A program made the position numbers and the translations under genes. 64,000 bases of DNA from sequence record OZ035771.1; one strand, written 5' to 3'. Shown in pieces: positions 4,753 through 12,697 of the stretch (position 1 is the first letter of the stretch; each line of letters begins with the position of its first letter). Below the pieces are notes generated by a model that searched no databases, was not told where the DNA came from, and worked only from the letters and a program-made list of their open reading frames with translations. This stretch comes from Phapecoctavirus DIJ07P2.

Positions 4753-7425
4753 ATGTTTCCAATTCCAATATTTACTATTATGACCAGCACTGGTGTCGTT
4801 CCTCTGCCAGCGGGTATTGTTAAAAAAGTAATCACTTTAGATTACCCAGACAATGCTGGTAATTCTAACAGCAGTTTAGCAATTTTGCTTAACGATGGTA
4901 GATTGTTTACTCAAGGTGCAAACCTTTTTGGTGAGATTGCAGATGGAACTCGTAGTGCACGATGCAACAATTTCTACTTAGCTTCTACTGTAGTAGCAGA
5001 TGTGTTTACCGCAGATCGTTGTTTTGTTATTAAAACTAACAGTGGGGGATGGCAATATTCAGGACTGACAGCAGGGTTAGTAGGATCTATAGCAGCAGGT
5101 GGTACGGATGCATGTGTAACTACTTGGACCAGCTTTCCATCTGTAATAACAGGGACTATCTCTTTAGCCAATCTTAAAGAGGTTAAGGGAGGATATAACA
5201 ACACTCTCTGGTTAATGAATAGTGGTGTTCTTTATGGATCGGGTCAAAACACAGTAGGCAGTTTAGGTGCAAGCACTACTAACGAAGTTTCTACTCCTCG
5301 TCAGATAACAAGCGCAGCAGTTGCTTTTGATGCAGGTTACAACCAATGCTCTTATGTCAACAATGTGGGAACCTTGCGTGTTTGTGGAGCTAGTAAAGGT
5401 TTAGCAGGTAATAATAACACAACAAAAGCTTTTGTAAATGCTACGATATCCACTACTGAAACAGTGTATGTCAAAGATTACATCAATACCGTTTCCCAGA
5501 CAATAGTTGTAGGAGATACCTCCGGTGGAACTGGTACAACAAACTACCTTTATGTTAGATCTAATACAGAAACAACCTACACTAAGCTGGATACCTTTGC
5601 AGCAGGTTTCTCAACATGGAAGTTTCCACCGAGCCGTCACTCTTTTTTCGTTGGGATTAATAATTCCTTGTGGGCTATCGGTAAGAACTATACGGCAAAC
5701 TTAGGTCTGGGGTATGATTCTGCGAGCGGAGATCCACTCCAAGTGGGAAAACCAGTTAAACCTGAAGGAGTGGGTTCCTGGGATATAAACAAGCTCACAA
5801 GCGTTCATACGCTGAATATGGATGTTACTAACCAATTAGGTTATCAAGGAACATTTTTCGTTTATAATGGAAGTATGTATTATTCCGGTATTTGGAAAGA
5901 TGGGAAAGCGTCATATCTGTTCAATAGCGGTCTAAACTATAATAAATTCACACCAATAGCAAGCTCCGTGATTACGGGTGATGTGCTGGCAACTAGCTTA
6001 ACTACAGATTCTTTAGGAATTTGTATTGTAGGTGGAACTAAACAGTTGACACATTCTGTTAGCCCAGAAGGAGGTAAACTTTTCAATATTAAATACACTT
6101 CTTCTGCCCCTGCAAACATGACAATATCATCTACTGGCTTAATGACTTTCCAAGCAGAAGGTGGTTTTGATGCAGGTATGACAGCCTTAAACGCTGAAGG
6201 AACAACTCTATCAGATATCTCTGGAGGATATGCTTCAACATTGAGCGTTTACACCCCTAGCTTATCTGCGATGGATGTAGGAACAACACAAACAATGGTA
6301 GCAGAAATAACGCCAACAGGAGCAGCAAGCTTACCTGGTATGGTTGTTGAGTATACAACTACAGATCCTAGTGTTGCTACAGTAGATCCTACAACTGGCG
6401 TAATAACTGGAGTTGGTGATGGTGGTTGTAGAATTGGTTGCACAGCTACGTATCAAGGTGTTGTTACCGCTTCTGATAGTTCTTATTTAACGGTGAACGC
6501 TGTTGCGGGAAAGGAGTTAGCTCCATCTCCGAGTAGTAGTTTAACGGTTCTAAACGGATATTTCAACCACTCGGCAGATGGGGCGATTACGTTCCCAACT
6601 TTATCGGGTACTGTTACACCAGCTAACTTTGTAGTTAAGGTGGATGACGTTGTAGTTCCTTCAAGTAAAGTAATATTTAGAAATAAAGCTTTCTCTACAG
6701 TGGATAGTTATCCAGCAGGAGAATATAGACTGGCTATTGAATTTGCAAGTGCTTCTGTAGTTAATAATGTTGAGGTATCTATGGAAGCAAATCCAGATCT
6801 TTTAGAATTGTGGGGCGGCAACAGGATTGGTTATTCTACAAGCCCAGCCTCACAGTTCTTAAAAGGTTGTGCTAACTTAAGACGAATAACCTCTGATTGT
6901 TTTAGTAACACATCTTACACCGGAACGTCTATAAGTGGTATTTTCTCTGGCTGCACAAGTTTGACAGCTATCCCTGAAGGATTATTCAGCGATACTTTAT
7001 TTCCTTCGATGACAACAATGTCAAGCACGTTTGAAGGTTGTACGTCTTTAACATCTATTCCTTCTGATTTATTTAAAAATTTATCAAAAGTTACAAGATA
7101 CTCTTACACCTTTAAAAATTGCACCTCTCTTGCAGAAGTTCCAGCCGGAATGTTTGACAATATTCCAACGAAAGTAACCTCTTTAACAGCTACGTTCCAA
7201 GGTTGTTTAGCACTTACAGATTTTAATAAAATCTTTAATGACAACCCAGGGTTAACGGTTTGTGGTCAACGTGGAGCATTGTCTTCTTTCTTTAGTGGAT
7301 GCACAAATCTTACAGGAACAGGAGTAACATTAACAAGCACATTAGGTGGAGCAGCTAATAGTTACCTATTCAGGTATTGCACAAAACTTTCTGATTATAA
7401 CAACATTCCTTCGGGTTATAAATAA
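4753..7425 (+). CDS. tail fibre/receptor-binding protein with Ig-like segment and C-terminal BspA-type leucine-rich repeats
   Basis: ATG 4753, SD ggaggg; C-terminal repeats FSGCTSLTAIPEGLF, FEGCTSLTSIPSDLF, FKNCTSLAEVPAGMF, FQGCLALTDF; Ig-like stretch VTVDPTTGVITGVGDGG. Confidence 0.55.
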   Translation: MFPIPIFTIMTSTGVVPLPAGIVKKVITLDYPDNAGNSNSSLAILLNDGRLFTQGANLFGEIADGTRSARCNNFYLASTVVADVFTADRCFVIKTNSGGWQYSGLTAGLVGSIAAGGTDACVTTWTSFPSVITGTISLANLKEVKGGYNNTLWLMNSGVLYGSGQNTVGSLGASTTNEVSTPRQITSAAVAFDAGYNQCSYVNNVGTLRVCGASKGLAGNNNTTKAFVNATISTTETVYVKDYINTVSQTIVVGDTSGGTGTTNYLYVRSNTETTYTKLDTFAAGFSTWKFPPSRHSFFVGINNSLWAIGKNYTANLGLGYDSASGDPLQVGKPVKPEGVGSWDINKLTSVHTLNMDVTNQLGYQGTFFVYNGSMYYSGIWKDGKASYLFNSGLNYNKFTPIASSVITGDVLATSLTTDSLGICIVGGTKQLTHSVSPEGGKLFNIKYTSSAPANMTISSTGLMTFQAEGGFDAGMTALNAEGTTLSDISGGYASTLSVYTPSLSAMDVGTTQTMVAEITPTGAASLPGMVVEYTTTDPSVATVDPTTGVITGVGDGGCRIGCTATYQGVVTASDSSYLTVNAVAGKELAPSPSSSLTVLNGYFNHSADGAITFPTLSGTVTPANFVVKVDDVVVPSSKVIFRNKAFSTVDSYPAGEYRLAIEFASASVVNNVEVSMEANPDLLELWGGNRIGYSTSPASQFLKGCANLRRITSDCFSNTSYTGTSISGIFSGCTSLTAIPEGLFSDTLFPSMTTMSSTFEGCTSLTSIPSDLFKNLSKVTRYSYTFKNCTSLAEVPAGMFDNIPTKVTSLTATFQGCLALTDFNKIFNDNPGLTVCGQRGALSSFFSGCTNLTGTGVTLTSTLGGAANSYLFRYCTKLSDYNNIPSGYK

Positions 7426-7430
7426 GAAAA

Positions 7431-7457
7431 GGAGCCATTTGGCTCCTTTCTTTTATT
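7431..7457. terminator. probable bidirectional terminator between convergent genes
   Basis: ggagccatttggctcc hairpin flanked by T-rich tract on plus strand and A-rich tract upstream. Confidence 0.55.
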
Positions 7458-7489
7458 CAGCGTTCAACCTCATACACTTGAAACAAACC

Positions 7490-8422
7490 TTAGAAGCAAT
7501 GCAGGAAGTTTCTACCATATTGCAGTCCAATAGGGGCAAATGGAATATCATCGTCGAAGTCCATTGGAGGTTCTTCTTGATTACTTGGAGTTGGTTCTGG
7601 TTGTGGTTCAGGTTTCTTAACTTCTTTCTTCTCTTCTTTCTTAGGCTGTTCTGCGGAACCACGAATGGCAGCAGCAACTTTATCAGACAGAGCCAGAACT
7701 TTACGAGCAGAATCAATCAGATCTTCTACAGAGACAGTCTTAATGGTATGGTCTTTACAAGCATTGAGAATAGCGTGACCAACAGATGCCCCAAGATCAT
7801 AATCATTAATATCAACACCACGAGATTCAGCAACTTCCGATTTCAGCGTGACGGTTGCAGATTGAACAACCCCAGCGATATCGAAAGCATCGCCTTTAAC
7901 ACCATTACGAATCAGTTCCAGTGCACCATTTACTGCGTGACCAGTTTCCAGACCTACAGTATCACGTTTTTTATAGGACTGCTTAGGAGCAGCATCGTTG
8001 GAACCTTTATTGCCAGAAGATTTGTTAGACTTCTGAACACCATCGGTAGACAATACTGTAATACGAGATTTTTTAGTATTGTAGTAAGTCTTACCGCCTT
8101 TATTATCAACGCGATCAATATCAATACTTACTTCTACACCTTTTTCAATAGTGATCCAATTATCACCTTCTTTGACTTGCAGGTTTTCATAACCTTCTTT
8201 CAGTTCAATGTCACCAAGAGAAATCCAAACACCTTTCTCATCTGGTTTAGCACCTTTCTCTTTCAGAACAAGAGAAGCTCGGTGAGTTGAAACAATCGTT
8301 TTTCCTTCCCAATGAAAAGTTTTAGGTTCAGCGAATTTATCCAGTTTAACGTAGTCTACGATACCAGTTGCATAAGTTACGGTTTTGCCTTTACGATCAG
8401 TTTCAGTATTAATTACGGACAT
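7490..8422 (-). CDS. SSB-like ssDNA-binding protein candidate carrying an E. coli SSB-type acidic tail motif
   Basis: ATG 8422 with SD gaggag; Lys/Glu/Pro-rich linker then EEPPMDFDDDIPF (last 9 residues as I recall the E. coli SSB C-terminus), followed by 15 further codons before the stop. Confidence 0.45.
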   Translation of the reverse strand: MSVINTETDRKGKTVTYATGIVDYVKLDKFAEPKTFHWEGKTIVSTHRASLVLKEKGAKPDEKGVWISLGDIELKEGYENLQVKEGDNWITIEKGVEVSIDIDRVDNKGGKTYYNTKKSRITVLSTDGVQKSNKSSGNKGSNDAAPKQSYKKRDTVGLETGHAVNGALELIRNGVKGDAFDIAGVVQSATVTLKSEVAESRGVDINDYDLGASVGHAILNACKDHTIKTVSVEDLIDSARKVLALSDKVAAAIRGSAEQPKKEEKKEVKKPEPQPEPTPSNQEEPPMDFDDDIPFAPIGLQYGRNFLHCF

Positions 8423-8438
8423 TATTATCTCCTCTATA

Positions 8439-8831
8439 TTACATTAATTTTGCACAGAAAGAGCGGAGTCTTTCCATATCATCTTGCTCTAACAGGTATT
8501 TACCTTTACCTATTCCAACTCCAATTTCACCATTAGGAAAATGAACTATTTGCACTGGGAAACCTCCGAGTTTAATTGTGGCAGCTTTGCCTTCTTCGTC
8601 TATAACGTTTCGGATTGTATCTTGCAGTGAAATGAATTCTTTGTTTGTAACAGTGGTTTCAATTATTTCAGATGTTCCAACACGAGCGGTTAGCTTCTTG
8701 TCGCCACCTTGAATAACCAAAATTTGAAAATAAAAAGAGTTGTCAAGACCTACAACATTTTTCTCAACTAGTGTCAAACTGGTGTAGTTTCCATAAACAG
8801 TTTCAACAGCTATCTTAGAACGTTCAGTCAT
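8439..8831 (-). CDS. hypothetical protein (130 aa)
   Basis: track ORF; co-directional tight packing; own promoter upstream. Confidence 0.45.
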   Translation of the reverse strand: MTERSKIAVETVYGNYTSLTLVEKNVVGLDNSFYFQILVIQGGDKKLTARVGTSEIIETTVTNKEFISLQDTIRNVIDEEGKAATIKLGGFPVQIVHFPNGEIGVGIGKGKYLLEQDDMERLRSFCAKLM

Positions 8832-8876: not shown

Positions 8877-9470
8877 TTACCAAGGAATATCATCTTCTTC
8901 CAATCGGGTATCTACTTGAGGTGGACGTGGAACCTTAACCTCTTTCACAAAACGAAGATACGGGAAACGTGTAGCAATTTTAATAACGTGTTTGGCATCT
9001 TCTCTAACATCTTTGTGCAAGAAGCAGATCCCTGTTTCCAAAGTTGTTTCAAAATCTTTAGAGTAATAACAATCCTTTCCATCAAATGCAGCCTGGCAGA
9101 TGGACAGATCAAACTCATTTAGAAAGGTTGTCATTACGCTTGGTTCCATAATCATAAGGTTGCAAAGCTGACCATCACGTTCAAACTCAAAAACGTGTTT
9201 AAGACCAGTAACACCTTCATAATTGTCAGAAGCCTCTTTGTTTCCTAGTTTACGAATATTGGTTCCCATTAAAGCAGATGCAATTAATCCTTGTATTTGT
9301 TCTTCAGTCCGATGTGCAGGAAGGGACGTATAGAAATCCAGATCACGTCCAGCAATATCAAGAATACGCCAATCACGAACAGCACCGCCAGCCAAGACAG
9401 AATTAGGATCAGCGATCTTTAATACGGTAAGAATTTCTTTGGCAATATTGATTTGTTTTGATTTAGTCAT
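8877..9470 (-). CDS. Pol-beta-superfamily nucleotidyltransferase (CCA-adding/poly(A) polymerase head-like)
   Basis: motif LAGGAVRD-x9-GRDLDF (GGxVRD...DxD); C-terminus ...RLEEDDIPW resembles an SSB-type tail. Confidence 0.45.
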   Translation of the reverse strand: MTKSKQINIAKEILTVLKIADPNSVLAGGAVRDWRILDIAGRDLDFYTSLPAHRTEEQIQGLIASALMGTNIRKLGNKEASDNYEGVTGLKHVFEFERDGQLCNLMIMEPSVMTTFLNEFDLSICQAAFDGKDCYYSKDFETTLETGICFLHKDVREDAKHVIKIATRFPYLRFVKEVKVPRPPQVDTRLEEDDIPW

Positions 9471-9681
9471 TGATACGCTCCACAGTTACTTTTACAACAT
9501 CGTCCATATTAATCTCATCCCCCAAGACCTCAATAACACCTTCCTCATAAAGTCTAGCACATTCTTCCCACACTTCAGCTTCCGTCATTCCACCTGCAAT
9601 CTTATTTGCAAGACCTTTAATAACATCTTCATTTTGTTCATCAACAAGAATTGAAACATTAAAGCTCACTAATTTACGCAT
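9463..9681 (-). CDS. hypothetical protein (72 aa)
   Basis: track ORF; ATG 9681 with SD aaggag. Confidence 0.4.
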   Translation of the reverse strand: MRKLVSFNVSILVDEQNEDVIKGLANKIAGGMTEAEVWEECARLYEEGVIEVLGDEINMDDVVKVTVERIND

Positions 9682-9691
9682 TGTTTTCTCC

Positions 9692-9859
9692 TTATACTTC
9701 TAAACGGAAAGTTTCTTTAGATACAAAATCGTATCCACCTTTTTCAAGCCAATCATTGTAAACCTCATCGGCTTGAGACTCTATCATAAAATACCGAGTG
9801 GTAACTTCGTCTCCGACAATACGCACAATTTTATAGCAAATCATGATACCATTTCCCAT
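9692..9859 (-). CDS. small hypothetical protein (55 aa)
   Basis: ATG 9859 overlapping upstream stop (TAATG), SD ggagga; stop at 9692-9694; below track length cut-off. Confidence 0.3.
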   Translation of the reverse strand: MGNGIMICYKIVRIVGDEVTTRYFMIESQADEVYNDWLEKGGYDFVSKETFRLEV

Positions 9860-10050
9860 TAATCTTCCTCCAGATCAATTTCATTATAACAATGTATACA
9901 GAAACCATCATTGTGCATATGTTGTTCATAAGACATATCTTTACCACAAGACCAACAACGGATATCCCCATCGTCCCATTCACGTTCTTCTTCGCCTTCA
10001 AATTCATCTGGTAGGTAAGGCATACCAAAATAATCTAAATCGTAACTCAT
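9859..10050 (-). CDS. small zinc-ribbon protein (63 aa)
   Basis: internal ATG 10050 with SD aggagaag preferred over track start 10155 (which would overlap the polymerase 3' end); CWSCG...CIHC. Confidence 0.4.
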   Translation of the reverse strand: MSYDLDYFGMPYLPDEFEGEEEREWDDGDIRCWSCGKDMSYEQHMHNDGFCIHCYNEIDLEED

Positions 10051-10059
10051 ATCTTCTCC

Positions 10060-10080
10060 TATAAAGGGGCAGAAGCCCCT
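10060..10080 (-). terminator. terminator/attenuator-like hairpin after DNA polymerase gene
   Basis: ggggcagaagcccc hairpin between polymerase stop (10100) and next start; followed on minus strand by TTTATAGG. Confidence 0.3.
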
Positions 10081-10099
10081 TATAAAACAATACGTTAGA

Positions 10100-12697
10100 T
10101 CAATGACAGGATGCCCAGGAATTACCCACATCATATCCGGCAGTAAGCTGAACATTAAGATTGTAAAATTCTCCAGCCTTAGTAACAGCTAAGGCAGCAA
10201 GTTCACCTGCCCGACTATAGGCTGTAAACCATCCACCTTTGGGAGATTCATGAATGTTAGCCCAAATTTGCCCTGTCTCTTTTTCCTTATTATGCTTCCA
10301 TTCTTCGACTTTAGCAAGGCATTCTTTATCAATCTTCTTTTGTTCTTCAGGATCGTCTACTTTCTTCCAACCTAATGATTCAGGTGAAAACCATTTAAAT
10401 TCTACAAGGTTACGAGAAACTTCAAGCTGGGCTTCATCGTGATATGCAATCATTTGTTGCACGAAATCTTTATTCTTCCAGTCATCTTTAAAGAAGTCAA
10501 CACTTAGTCCTTCTTCTTCGATCATGTCGTCATAAATAACCATTGCACGTTTAGCACAGATAACCCCACCACTTTGGAACAGAGAGTTAAGAATCGCGTG
10601 AGCAGAACGAGTAGGAACCTTACGACCGTCAATACCCAAAACATATTGTTTACCAGTCTTAACCCAAAAATCGTTTAAACGTTCTTTAAGACGCGCCAAT
10701 GGGAATGCAGCTTCCCAGAAAGCATCAAACACCAATTGACCTGTAAACTTATCGCTACCAATTGTTTTAGCAACCTTGTCGGCTTGTGCACCATAGGTAA
10801 TACCATACTTAACAGATTTAGCAGGACTACGTTCAAATTTACGTCCAATAGTTTCAGTGATACGTTTTGCCATCATTGTGTGAACATCGTTAGGTTTCTC
10901 TAACAACAGAGCGTTACAATATTCGTGTGGCTCCGGCTCGTACCGCCAACAGTAGTGTGATTCAATTTTTGCTTCCAAAGAGTCGAAGTCGTAGCCGATC
11001 TGGAAGTATTTAGGAACCTCTACACCAAACAAGTTACGCATCTCCCATCCAAACAAAGATGTGACACGAGGGATATTGGCTACAGACCTATGCTTCATAC
11101 GAGAGGTTGCAGCATCACATGTAGCGGCTGGGGTAGGAATACGCCCATCTGCCCTTACTGCGGCTAAGAAACCTTTATCGTATTCTTGATCTTCTTCATC
11201 TTCTTCCCAATCAGCACCGCCACCTAAAATAGAGTTCCTACGATGCTTATACGTTAAGTATTCTACAATCTGAGTAGCATAAGGAAATTTCTCACCCAAA
11301 GCTTGCAGGTTAGGACAAATTTCTTTTTCCTGACCTTTGGTAAAACATGGGTTAGTCAATACTTTAAGACCGCGACCTTTACCTTTTGCTATACGCTCTT
11401 GAATCTTCCTTTCCAAGGTTTCCGGTGTGCACTCCAGATGATCACAACGATCCTGACAAAAATTAGAAGATAGAGTTTGCTCAACGTAAGCTCGAATACC
11501 TTTCTGAAGTTCTTCCTCGCTCTTTTTAATCTTGGTGCCAGATTTAAGAGTCAAGTCTTTATCTTTATATTCAGACGGTACCCAACCTAATCCTACAAGC
11601 CAGTTTTTAATATGGGTTGTATCGTTCAATGTTGCAGGGATATTAGGATCACACAAAGGCTCATCTGCTGCAACTGGCAGTTTCCACTCTTTACCCAACA
11701 TAACTAACCACCAATCGCCATCCCTCTCTTCCAAATGACCATCATGTTTCTTAGCAAAATTGATCATATGGTTAGTTGGCTCTAAGTTCTTTTTAATTTG
11801 CAACTTAGGTGGAATAAAAGCCTTAAGATAACCTTTTGTTGCTGGTTTAGGTGGCAAAATAGGCTCAACGAGTAAACGAAGACGCTCCATTTCTGCATCC
11901 AAAAAAGCAAGGTTCTCTTCTGCTTGCTTCATGTTAAAAGCAAACCCACGGTGTTCCTGGCGTGTAATAATGTCTGCTACACGTTGTTCAAGTTCAAATG
12001 GACCTTCCCATTTATCATAATCACCCCATTCTTCCATGAGGTAATTATATACACTTGTGTTGGCTTTGTTATCATAGATACAGTAATAAAGCATATCCGC
12101 AGCAAAAGTCTTAAATCGATCTTCTTCTGGAATCTCTTTACGGAAATCTATTTTTACATCACCCCCTGCCTTTCGAGAAAGTGCTGCCAAGCTATGTCCT
12201 GATTTGCCCTCAATCTTTCGATCTGGGTTTAACACTTTACTCAAAATCAAGGAGTCAATAAGTTTTACCTTATTTTTGCCCCACGTATTATATTTAACAC
12301 TGTAATCTAAGCCATAAAACAGTTTTGTAGCCAACCAGTCATAGTTGATACCGTTGTGAGCCACAGCCATTTCAACCAGATATTCAGGCTTATCTTTAAA
12401 ATAACCTTCATGATTAATAAAGTCTGGGAAATCTTTTAGTTGAAAATGTGTGTAATCTTGCGCCACATACTCTTTAAGAACATATGTGTATTTACCATCT
12501 GACTCTTCATAAGGACGCCCATCAAAGATGTATTTAGGGCCATCGTGGAAAGCTACTATTTCTCCTGTTTCATGGTTCTCTAAGACAATACAGTGCATTT
12601 GAAATGTGTCTTTGAGACGATAAGGACTAGCTAAATAATCGATAGTATCATTATTCAACAATCCATTTGCTTCAATATCCCATGTAAACTTACTCAC
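10100..12697 (-). CDS. DNA polymerase, family A, with 3'-5' exonuclease domain
   Basis: 865 aa; Exo I-like FTWDIEANGL; motif B-like RSPAKSVKYGITYGAQ; motif C-like IAYHDEAQLEV; GTG start 12697 with SD aaaggagg. Confidence 0.85.
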   Translation of the reverse strand: MSKFTWDIEANGLLNNDTIDYLASPYRLKDTFQMHCIVLENHETGEIVAFHDGPKYIFDGRPYEESDGKYTYVLKEYVAQDYTHFQLKDFPDFINHEGYFKDKPEYLVEMAVAHNGINYDWLATKLFYGLDYSVKYNTWGKNKVKLIDSLILSKVLNPDRKIEGKSGHSLAALSRKAGGDVKIDFRKEIPEEDRFKTFAADMLYYCIYDNKANTSVYNYLMEEWGDYDKWEGPFELEQRVADIITRQEHRGFAFNMKQAEENLAFLDAEMERLRLLVEPILPPKPATKGYLKAFIPPKLQIKKNLEPTNHMINFAKKHDGHLEERDGDWWLVMLGKEWKLPVAADEPLCDPNIPATLNDTTHIKNWLVGLGWVPSEYKDKDLTLKSGTKIKKSEEELQKGIRAYVEQTLSSNFCQDRCDHLECTPETLERKIQERIAKGKGRGLKVLTNPCFTKGQEKEICPNLQALGEKFPYATQIVEYLTYKHRRNSILGGGADWEEDEEDQEYDKGFLAAVRADGRIPTPAATCDAATSRMKHRSVANIPRVTSLFGWEMRNLFGVEVPKYFQIGYDFDSLEAKIESHYCWRYEPEPHEYCNALLLEKPNDVHTMMAKRITETIGRKFERSPAKSVKYGITYGAQADKVAKTIGSDKFTGQLVFDAFWEAAFPLARLKERLNDFWVKTGKQYVLGIDGRKVPTRSAHAILNSLFQSGGVICAKRAMVIYDDMIEEEGLSVDFFKDDWKNKDFVQQMIAYHDEAQLEVSRNLVEFKWFSPESLGWKKVDDPEEQKKIDKECLAKVEEWKHNKEKETGQIWANIHESPKGGWFTAYSRAGELAALAVTKAGEFYNLNVQLTAGYDVGNSWASCH

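Follow-up and report, generated by a model that had tools for sequence, protein, structure and literature searches.

A predicted head-only nucleotidyltransferase, related to Gad2 and ending in an SSB-tail-like peptide, in the replication operon of a Phapecoctavirus

A stretch of 64,000 nucleotides from Phapecoctavirus DIJ07P2 (sequence record OZ035771.1), here called the window, contains a replication operon in which an open reading frame (ORF) of 197 aa plus stop codon (8877..9470, minus strand) encodes a protein that is very probably an active nucleotidyltransferase of the PHROG 10174/1614 family, judging by its conserved residues. The predicted fold is that of the head domain of class II enzymes such as CCA-adding enzymes and poly(A) polymerases, and by sequence the family appears nearer to the nucleotidyltransferase domain of Gad2, a phage protein that blocks the Gabija defence system. 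Members of the family are components of phage replication modules. In the lineage of the window, the protein ends in a peptide that resembles the C-terminal docking peptide (SSB-Ct) of SSB, the protein that binds single-stranded DNA. Taken together, these features suggest a replisome-associated, Gad2-related terminal nucleotidyltransferase that is docked via a mimic of the SSB tail, a reading to which we assign a probability of about 0.45.

Results

That the gene encodes a nucleotidyltransferase is no new finding, since GenBank and PHROG labels already give the enzyme class. The window region is 98% identical to genomes of Phapecoctavirus (phAPEC8-like E. coli myophages of ~150 kb, Stephanstirmvirinae), and 100% identical proteins occur in many Phapecoctavirus genomes in GenBank, labelled 'nucleotidyltransferase', 'putative tRNA nucleotidyl transferase / poly(A) polymerase' or 'hypothetical protein'. 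PHROG 10174 (E 6.5e-63, aa 1-128) and PHROG 1614 (E 5e-11, aa 4-184), both labelled nucleotidyltransferase, match the protein. A PADLOC run returned zero matches for it, a PDB sequence search with the single protein gave noise only, and literature searches on phAPEC8 or the tail motif turned up nothing relevant. The ORF, as read from the sequence, starts with ATG and ends in RLEEDDIPW before the stop, with a ribosome-binding site GGAG (9478..9481, minus strand) located 7 nt 5' of the start codon. The start overlaps by 8 nt the stop of a preceding small ORF (9463..9681), and the gene is therefore probably translationally coupled inside the operon.

To delimit the family, a profile built from close homologues was searched against 1.84 billion representative proteins; 1045 clusters matched at E<=1e-3, and 333 still did so at E<=1e-10. 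Among the best 150 matches listed, nearly all are stand-alone proteins of 175-230 aa that cover profile positions 1 to ~177. Residue conservation was counted in an alignment of 146 members. Motif A (AGGAVRDW...DLDFY, aa 27-47; 9330..9392, minus strand) comprises the glycine loop together with D43 and D45, the two aspartates that bind metal, and aligns to the GGAVRD...DxD of CCA-adding enzymes; G28, G29, D43 and D45 are invariant in 146/146 sequences, and such invariance of GG and DxD speaks for a functional enzyme. An earlier interpretation made from the letters of this stretch (the sequence-only reading) had recognised a Pol-beta signature here and relied on its aspartates being catalytic. 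Their alignment agrees with this, and both GGAVRD (aa 28-33) and DLDF (aa 43-46) are present, but the spacing had been given as x9 and is GGAVRD-x7-GRDLDF, with 9 residues running from GGAVRD to DLD. Further residues conserved to at least 90% are A27, A30, R32, D33, W34, Y84 and K164 (R32, D33 and W34 at 90-99%), while Q/N104, F120, S123-I-C125, F140, H/Y161 and F169-P170 are strongly conserved. The likely third carboxylate is E95 (9186..9188, minus strand) in strand beta-4 (VFEFE), where strand 90-98 of the structure model is located as expected; the family has E or D at this position in 71% and N or Q in 18% of its members. Towards the C-terminus, the helix region of aa 157-170, EDAKHVIKIATRFP (8961..9002, minus strand), contains K164 (98% of the family), H or Y at position 161 (95%) and R or K at position 168, with no family conservation of E157 and D158 in the 146-member alignment.

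Some relatives depart from the stand-alone architecture. Five longer ones (P0079, P0099, P0069, P0121 and P0131) have N-terminal extensions without a Pfam match, and a Pfam scan of these five and P0056 gave zero matches. The extension of P0079 consists of two repeats of ~75 aa each, and P0069, P0121 and P0131 have a small N-terminal domain of ~60 aa in common. Such fusions might indicate the substrate if their folds were known. ORF223 of Vibrio phage ICP1 (locus L003, 4956..5369) is a member truncated to 137 aa that ends just past the SxC motif; a continuation in another frame was looked for and none was seen, so that it may be a decaying or split copy.

An AlphaFold2 model built from 118 sequences reached a mean predicted local distance difference test score (pLDDT) of 92.7 and a predicted template modelling score (pTM) of 0.85. 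It supersedes a model from 12 sequences (pLDDT 65), which gave generic Pol-beta-fold matches with MenT1 on top. The model comprises a folded catalytic core (aa 1-177; 8940..9470, minus strand) made of a class-II-like head domain and one neck-like helix, and disorder is confined to ~aa 180-197. In structural comparisons the model came closest to class II CCA-adding enzymes and poly(A) polymerases. Since 150-164 residues align to class II enzymes, the modelled protein corresponds to their head and the beginning of their neck. With 344-517 aa for the matched enzymes, the view that 197 aa are too short for a body and a tail is supported. BFVD contains numerous phage proteins of this fold, 167-230 aa in length, for example in LKD16, Pectobacterium PP2, Dickeya Ninurta, Caulobacter Cd1, Aeromonas phiAS7 and, as ORF223, in ICP1.

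The profile search and the structure prediction by which the sequence-only reading could be checked differ in outcome: the prediction gave the class II head fold, whereas the match to Pfam PolyA_pol (PF01743) covers aa 26-65 only and stays below the cut-off (13.9 vs 23 bits). The NCBIfam CCA model TIGR02692 scored 12.6 against a threshold of 438.8. Within the family, PolyA_pol was matched at E<=0.01 in 16/118 members, and a search of the family profile against the PDB found CCA-adding enzymes as best matches, with E 0.002 and restricted to positions 10-50. An hhalign comparison with E. coli Cca aligned 24 columns around motif A at a probability of 27% and nothing beyond motif A. By eye, EFDLSICQAAF is like motif B (RRDLTINALAQ) and EDAKHVIKIATRF is like the motif D helix (EDPLRVLRVARF) of E. 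coli Cca. In class II enzymes, the RRD of motif B serves in ribose recognition and the EDxxR of motif D is the amino-acid template for CTP/ATP. The window protein has EFD in place of RRD, at positions 118-121 that are unconserved in the family, and EDAKH in place of EDxxR, where the E/D positions 157-158 are unconserved and position 161 is H or Y, not R. The tRNA-binding body and tail domains are absent from its 197 aa, of which the last 20 are disordered. Ancestry and catalytic chemistry are common with the class II enzymes, but the features expected of a CCA-adding enzyme beyond motif A and the head fold were not found, and the CCA-adding reading is probably wrong.

The sequence of the family points in another direction. 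We compared it with Gad2 of SPbetaL7 (ORF_159, 400 aa; Supplementary Table 7 of Yirmiya et al., bioRxiv 10.1101/2023.05.01.538930), of which the copy used had 399 residues. The hhalign alignment covers 121 columns (family 18-157 vs Gad2 16-139) at a probability of 93.5% and E 2.3e-7. Gad2 also matches PHROG 1614 (E 8.3e-6), as does Gp22 of Klebsiella phage fHe-Kpn01 (E 1.3e-39). Motifs common to the family and Gad2 are AGGA...DxDxYF, LQMI and FDx[ST][IV]C, the last of which reads FDFTVCMGAFD in Gad2 and FDLSICQAAFD in the window protein. Precomputed Pfam tables list weak or faint PF26128 (Gad2) matches on four relatives; the link made here rests on hhalign and PHROG 1614, not on the Pfam Gad2 model. 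Given these results and those for Cca, the family seems closer by sequence to the nucleotidyltransferase domain of Gad2 than to Cca. The proposal that the protein is nearest to the head of CCA-adding enzymes and poly(A) polymerases thus holds for structure, whereas in sequence it is nearer to the N-terminal domain of Gad2 and resembles Cca in motif A only.

The C-terminus consists of a variable disordered linker (aa 178-191; 8898..8939, minus strand), recognised by low pLDDT, low identity and indels, and an SSB-Ct-like tip EDDIPW (aa 192-197; 8880..8897, minus strand) that is conserved among homologues. Tail conservation was measured as mean pairwise identity in 10 homologues at 59-98% identity and amounted to 0.79 for the tip, 0.39 for the linker (aa 176-191) and 0.63-0.78 for the core. 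The linker preceding the tip varies in both sequence and length, and pLDDT is 55-74 over ~aa 180-197 of the 118-sequence model. The tip reads D-D-I-P-W in these homologues except for one DDSFPW, with a terminal Trp in 10/10. Two positions separate EDDIPW from the E. coli SSB-Ct DDDIPF, with E replacing D and W replacing F. The resemblance to the acidic SSB tail, already remarked upon in the sequence-only reading, is therefore well founded: the tip is conserved, disordered and two substitutions from DDDIPF. Among the ORFs of the window, that of the nucleotidyltransferase alone encodes an acidic C-terminal stretch closed by an aromatic residue.

Similar ends occur elsewhere in the family. Distant members end in PDDIPW (P0016), SSNDIPW (P0121) or DDGIPF (P0159), and other ends are WDEEF, SDDDF, DVFNF and DIEDFEF. 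An acidic tail with a terminal aromatic was present in 13/150 family representatives vs 28/809 of the remaining ORFs at these loci (odds ratio 2.6, p=0.007); it is enriched yet a minority, lineage-specific trait. At two loci it is paired with an SSB tail in the same genome (WDEEF with DDDIPF in L008, DVFNF with DDDIPF in L017), and the nucleotidyltransferases at loci with gp2.5-type SSBs are without an acidic tail. In other phages with such a nucleotidyltransferase, proteins of PHROG 862 (function label: unknown; 223-245 aa; L035 ORF 1, L041 ORF 6 and L050 ORF 10) end in DGDDVPW, KDKDIPW or EGEDTPW, so that acidic P-W ends also occur on further phage proteins encoded close to replication genes.

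The operon also encodes a 310-aa protein annotated as SSB (7490..8422, minus strand). It carries PSNQEEPPMDFDDDIPF, almost exactly the last 15 residues of E. coli SSB, with PPMDFDDDIPF at aa 285-295 and DDDIPF at 7538..7555. Its likeness to solved SSBs is limited to this tail, and its body belongs to PHROG 4477 (function label: unknown). In the window, MDFDDDIPF (aa 287-295) is internal and followed by 15 residues, APIGLQYGRNFLHCF (7493..7537). This extension should block the free carboxylate that is recognised by SSB-Ct pockets. The SSB tail which the sequence-only reading placed on the neighbouring gene is thus real, but it belongs to the gene after next and does not form the end of the protein. 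Right after ...ATTCCATT, the sequence diverges completely from near-identical phages (window ~7425..7540), and loci L010 and L011 have a TGA stop and a different terminator past this point. The divergence point is a mosaic junction with the tail-fibre module, exactly at the gene end. The 15-codon extension is also present in Mt1B1_P17 and the phi92-like PD06.

The genomic context is that of DNA replication. A PolA-type DNA polymerase (10100..12697, minus strand) lies upstream in the same transcription unit; it is named DNA polymerase I in relatives, and its equivalent in L008 matches Pfam DNA_pol_A. Between the nucleotidyltransferase and the SSB-tail gene lies the gene of a conserved 130-aa protein (8439..8831, minus strand) of PHROG 16560 (function label: unknown). 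No terminator-like sites were found between PolA and the SSB-tail gene in the window; one such site, 3' of the SSB-tail gene, is a terminator-like hairpin (7427..7450, minus strand) that closes the operon. Phapecoctavirus, Justusliebigvirus (phi92-like), Klebsiella phage FKP3 and two metagenomic relatives all keep the order primase-helicase, PolA, (small ORFs), nucleotidyltransferase, 130-aa protein, SSB-tail protein. In Stephanstirmvirinae-like phages, the 130-aa protein gene is always found between the other two, making its product a candidate partner of the nucleotidyltransferase, the SSB-tail protein or both. A small ORF (9859..10155, minus strand) overlaps the 3' end of PolA and encodes a zinc-ribbon-like CxxC...CxxC pattern (CWSCGK...CIHC); in its RefSeq relatives a shorter version of 63 aa is annotated.

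For a wider view, 80 IMG/VR loci were fetched and dereplicated to 54 at 80% nucleotidyltransferase identity, and neighbouring ORFs were clustered within a range of 7 kb. A T7 gp4-like primase-helicase (Toprim_2 + KaiC/AAA_25) was present in 39/54 loci and PolA in 38/54, followed by a 5'-3' exonuclease (11/54), an ATP-dependent DNA ligase (6/54) and a gp2.5-like SSB (6/54). tRNA genes were found in 5/49 loci scanned and none in the 64-kb window. Neither an RNA ligase cluster nor a linkage to kinase-phosphatase genes appeared among the recurrent neighbours of the 54 loci; the representative of the DNA ligase cluster has a below-cutoff RNA_ligase match (25.2 vs 27 bits). Phages of other groups fit this pattern, with fHe-Kpn01 gp22 (locus L091, 7894..8442; 182 aa) directly after PolA in a T7-like phage and Emajogi gp22 beside the primase-helicase. 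The position of fHe-Kpn01 gp22 suggests a recurrent recruitment of head-only nucleotidyltransferases to phage replisome operons. KP34 (type Drulisvirus) had no family member in the region checked.

Discussion

The following scheme would combine these observations. The nucleotidyltransferase would be expressed from the phage replication operon together with PolA, the 130-aa protein and the SSB-tail protein. Its disordered C-terminal tip EDDIPW may copy the SSB docking peptide DDDIPF and tether the enzyme to a pocket that receives SSB-Ct, which could belong to a host protein that interacts with SSB or to the polymerase or helicase of the phage. Positioned in this way at intermediates of replication or recombination, the enzyme might extend the 3' end of a nucleic acid without a template. 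The phage could benefit from the protection or processing of ends, or from the evasion of end-sensing defences, as suspected for Gad2. The sequence-only reading had offered recruitment to replication complexes as one of two options, and this option fits better than tRNA repair with a primase-helicase and PolA at ~70% of loci each, while docking through the tail is a conjecture drawn from its likeness to SSB-Ct. A more specific version, in which a replisome-tethered enzyme, docked in the SSB-partner pockets of host repair or restart proteins or of the phage polymerase, tails the 3' ends of phage DNA or primers, shields them from Gabija-like defences and represents a minimal Gad2, seems rather improbable to us.

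Several observations weigh against the scheme as a whole. The tail ends in Trp where SSB-Ct has Phe, and an acidic-aromatic tail is found in only ~9% of family representatives. It is absent from the nearest other genus, where phi92-like proteins end in NEEFKI, and the FKP3 protein ends in WDDDKI; the tail therefore cannot be essential to the core function of the family. Clustering with replication genes is common to any phage nucleic-acid enzyme and no proof that they are linked physically or in function. About one in four family members has N, Q, T or G in place of E95. The relationship to Gad2 spans only ~120 residues, and our own Pfam scan of the window protein and four relatives gave zero Gad2 matches at E<=10. 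Moreover, the mechanism of Gad2 was still listed as unknown in February 2026 (PMC12904381), and no functional transfer from Gad2 is therefore possible.

One alternative, which agrees with the GenBank label, sees in the protein a poly(A) polymerase or a minimal enzyme that adds CCA to tRNAs or repairs their 3' ends; it would restore or extend RNA ends damaged by tRNA-targeting toxins of the host, or mature phage tRNAs. The best structural matches, the best PDB profile matches, the PolyA_pol hits in 16/118 members and the motif B-like and motif D-like stretches seen by eye all speak for it, and so do tRNA genes that Phapecoctaviruses presumably carry elsewhere in their genomes. Yet the similarity to Cca is confined to 24 columns of motif A at a probability of 27%, PolyA_pol stays below its cut-off, RRD is absent, the EDxxR residues are unconserved, and there is no body or tail domain to hold a tRNA. 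The gene neighbourhoods likewise argue against this role, with tRNA genes near only 5/49 loci and an ATP-dependent DNA ligase as the only ligase family among recurrent neighbours. Members with the same fold occur in T7-like and phiKMV-like phages, which to our knowledge usually have no tRNA genes. The tRNA 3'-end repair function that the sequence-only reading put forward is thus not borne out, and we regard this alternative as distinctly unlikely. A host shut-off toxin of the MenT/AbiEii kind, which would add nucleotides to the acceptor ends of host tRNAs or to other RNAs and cause an early translation block, would be in keeping with the toxicity of related small nucleotidyltransferases on overexpression, but toxicity at high induction is unspecific. 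Furthermore, there is no PADLOC match, neither a DUF1814-type fold or sequence nor a defence-model match was found, and the gene is part of a replication operon, not of an early host-takeover region. This explanation is very improbable.

The remaining alternative stays closer to Gad2. The protein could counter host defences through a target other than replication intermediates: it would nucleotidylylate or otherwise inactivate a host defence protein (such as Gabija GajA/GajB) or make or consume a nucleotide signal, and its tail would be a decoy for host factors that sense or bind SSB. The homology to the Gad2 N-terminal domain, the common PHROG 1614 and the Gad2 family labels of some relatives are in favour of this, as is the genetic proof that Gad2 blocks Gabija. 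A further point in favour is that several defence systems are listed as sensors of phage SSB (table, PMC12904381). On the other hand, the C-terminal 260 residues of the 400 aa of Gad2 are unmatched here, the window protein has no Pfam Gad2 match, and the family is far larger and its position more conserved than is typical of anti-defence genes. Gad2 itself is encoded in a variable anti-defence locus of Bacillus phages, whereas the window gene is fixed in the core replication operon across genera. We therefore consider this alternative unlikely as well and favour, tentatively, a replisome-associated enzyme docked via its tail. Overexpression of fHe-Kpn01 Gp22 is toxic in E. coli (PMC7291057), and the same is known for Emajogi gp22 and for Gad2 of SPbetaL7, with effects that span E. 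coli, P. putida and B. subtilis. The toxicity of these three related proteins suggests that the target of such enzymes is of importance to cells, without pointing to any one target.

Few uncharacterised enzymes of phage replication modules are as common as the head-only class-II-like nucleotidyltransferases. Little more than a name has so far been attached to this large family, and matches to its fold include T7-like, phiKMV-like, rV5-like and Vibrio phages. The papers searched mention neither the head-only architecture that holds across the family, nor its association with replication modules in numbers, nor the SSB-Ct-like tip of the window lineage. An SSB-tail mimic on an enzyme offers a concrete, testable handle on its site of action. 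The E. coli SSB tail recurs literally in the operon partner, which suggests that phages of this group connect proteins of their own to the SSB interaction hub of the host. If docking and substrate were established, a widespread phage gene would be explained, and perhaps the action of Gad2 too. Should the enzyme prove to be a minimal Gad2 that tails 3' ends, this would reveal the working of the whole Gad2/PHROG 1614 superfamily.

Comparison with known systems

The window protein shares the Pol-beta fold head, motif A (GGxVRD...DxD) and weak motif B-like and motif D-like stretches with class II CCA-adding enzymes and poly(A) polymerase I (PF01743; PDB 3aql, 4wby, 3h37, 1miv). Unlike these, it has half the size and lacks the rest of the neck, the body and the tail, and its family has a signature of its own (RDW, Y84, Q104, SIC, K164) and is located in replication modules, whereas class II enzymes act in RNA metabolism. 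A stand-alone 'CCA-adding enzyme head domain' has been solved from S. pneumoniae (NP_344798.1; PDB 2la3; PF06042/DUF925). This protein is bacterial and not from a phage, no acidic tail is known for it, and Pfam scans of the window protein and its relatives gave no detectable relationship to PF06042/DUF925.

Gad2 (SPbetaL7 ORF_159; PF26128) has a homologous nucleotidyltransferase domain, is phage-borne and matches PHROG 1614, but it is without the RDW motif and its residues 140-400 have no counterpart in the window protein. Similar in architecture are the small nucleotidyltransferases of Autographiviridae (fHe-Kpn01 Gp22, LKD16, Pectobacterium PP2 and Emajogi gp22; PHROG 1614), which are likewise stand-alone class-II-head proteins of ~180-200 aa with genes directly beside PolA or the primase-helicase. 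Unlike the window protein, fHe-Kpn01 Gp22 is more PcnB-like (GGCIRDEYFGLPVKDVD) and without an SSB-like tail, and a direct profile alignment with the window family is limited to motif A (28 columns, probability 75%).

The tail of the window protein is like SSB-Ct in being an acidic peptide that ends in I-P-aromatic at a free C-terminus, after a disordered variable linker; unlike in bacterial SSB, it is located on an enzyme and not on a single-stranded DNA-binding protein with an oligonucleotide/oligosaccharide-binding fold. In phage T7, both gp2.5 and gp4 carry acidic tails with a terminal aromatic residue, which dock on T7 polymerase. Two proteins of the window operon likewise carry a peptide of this kind, namely the SSB docking peptide of the host or a near copy of it.

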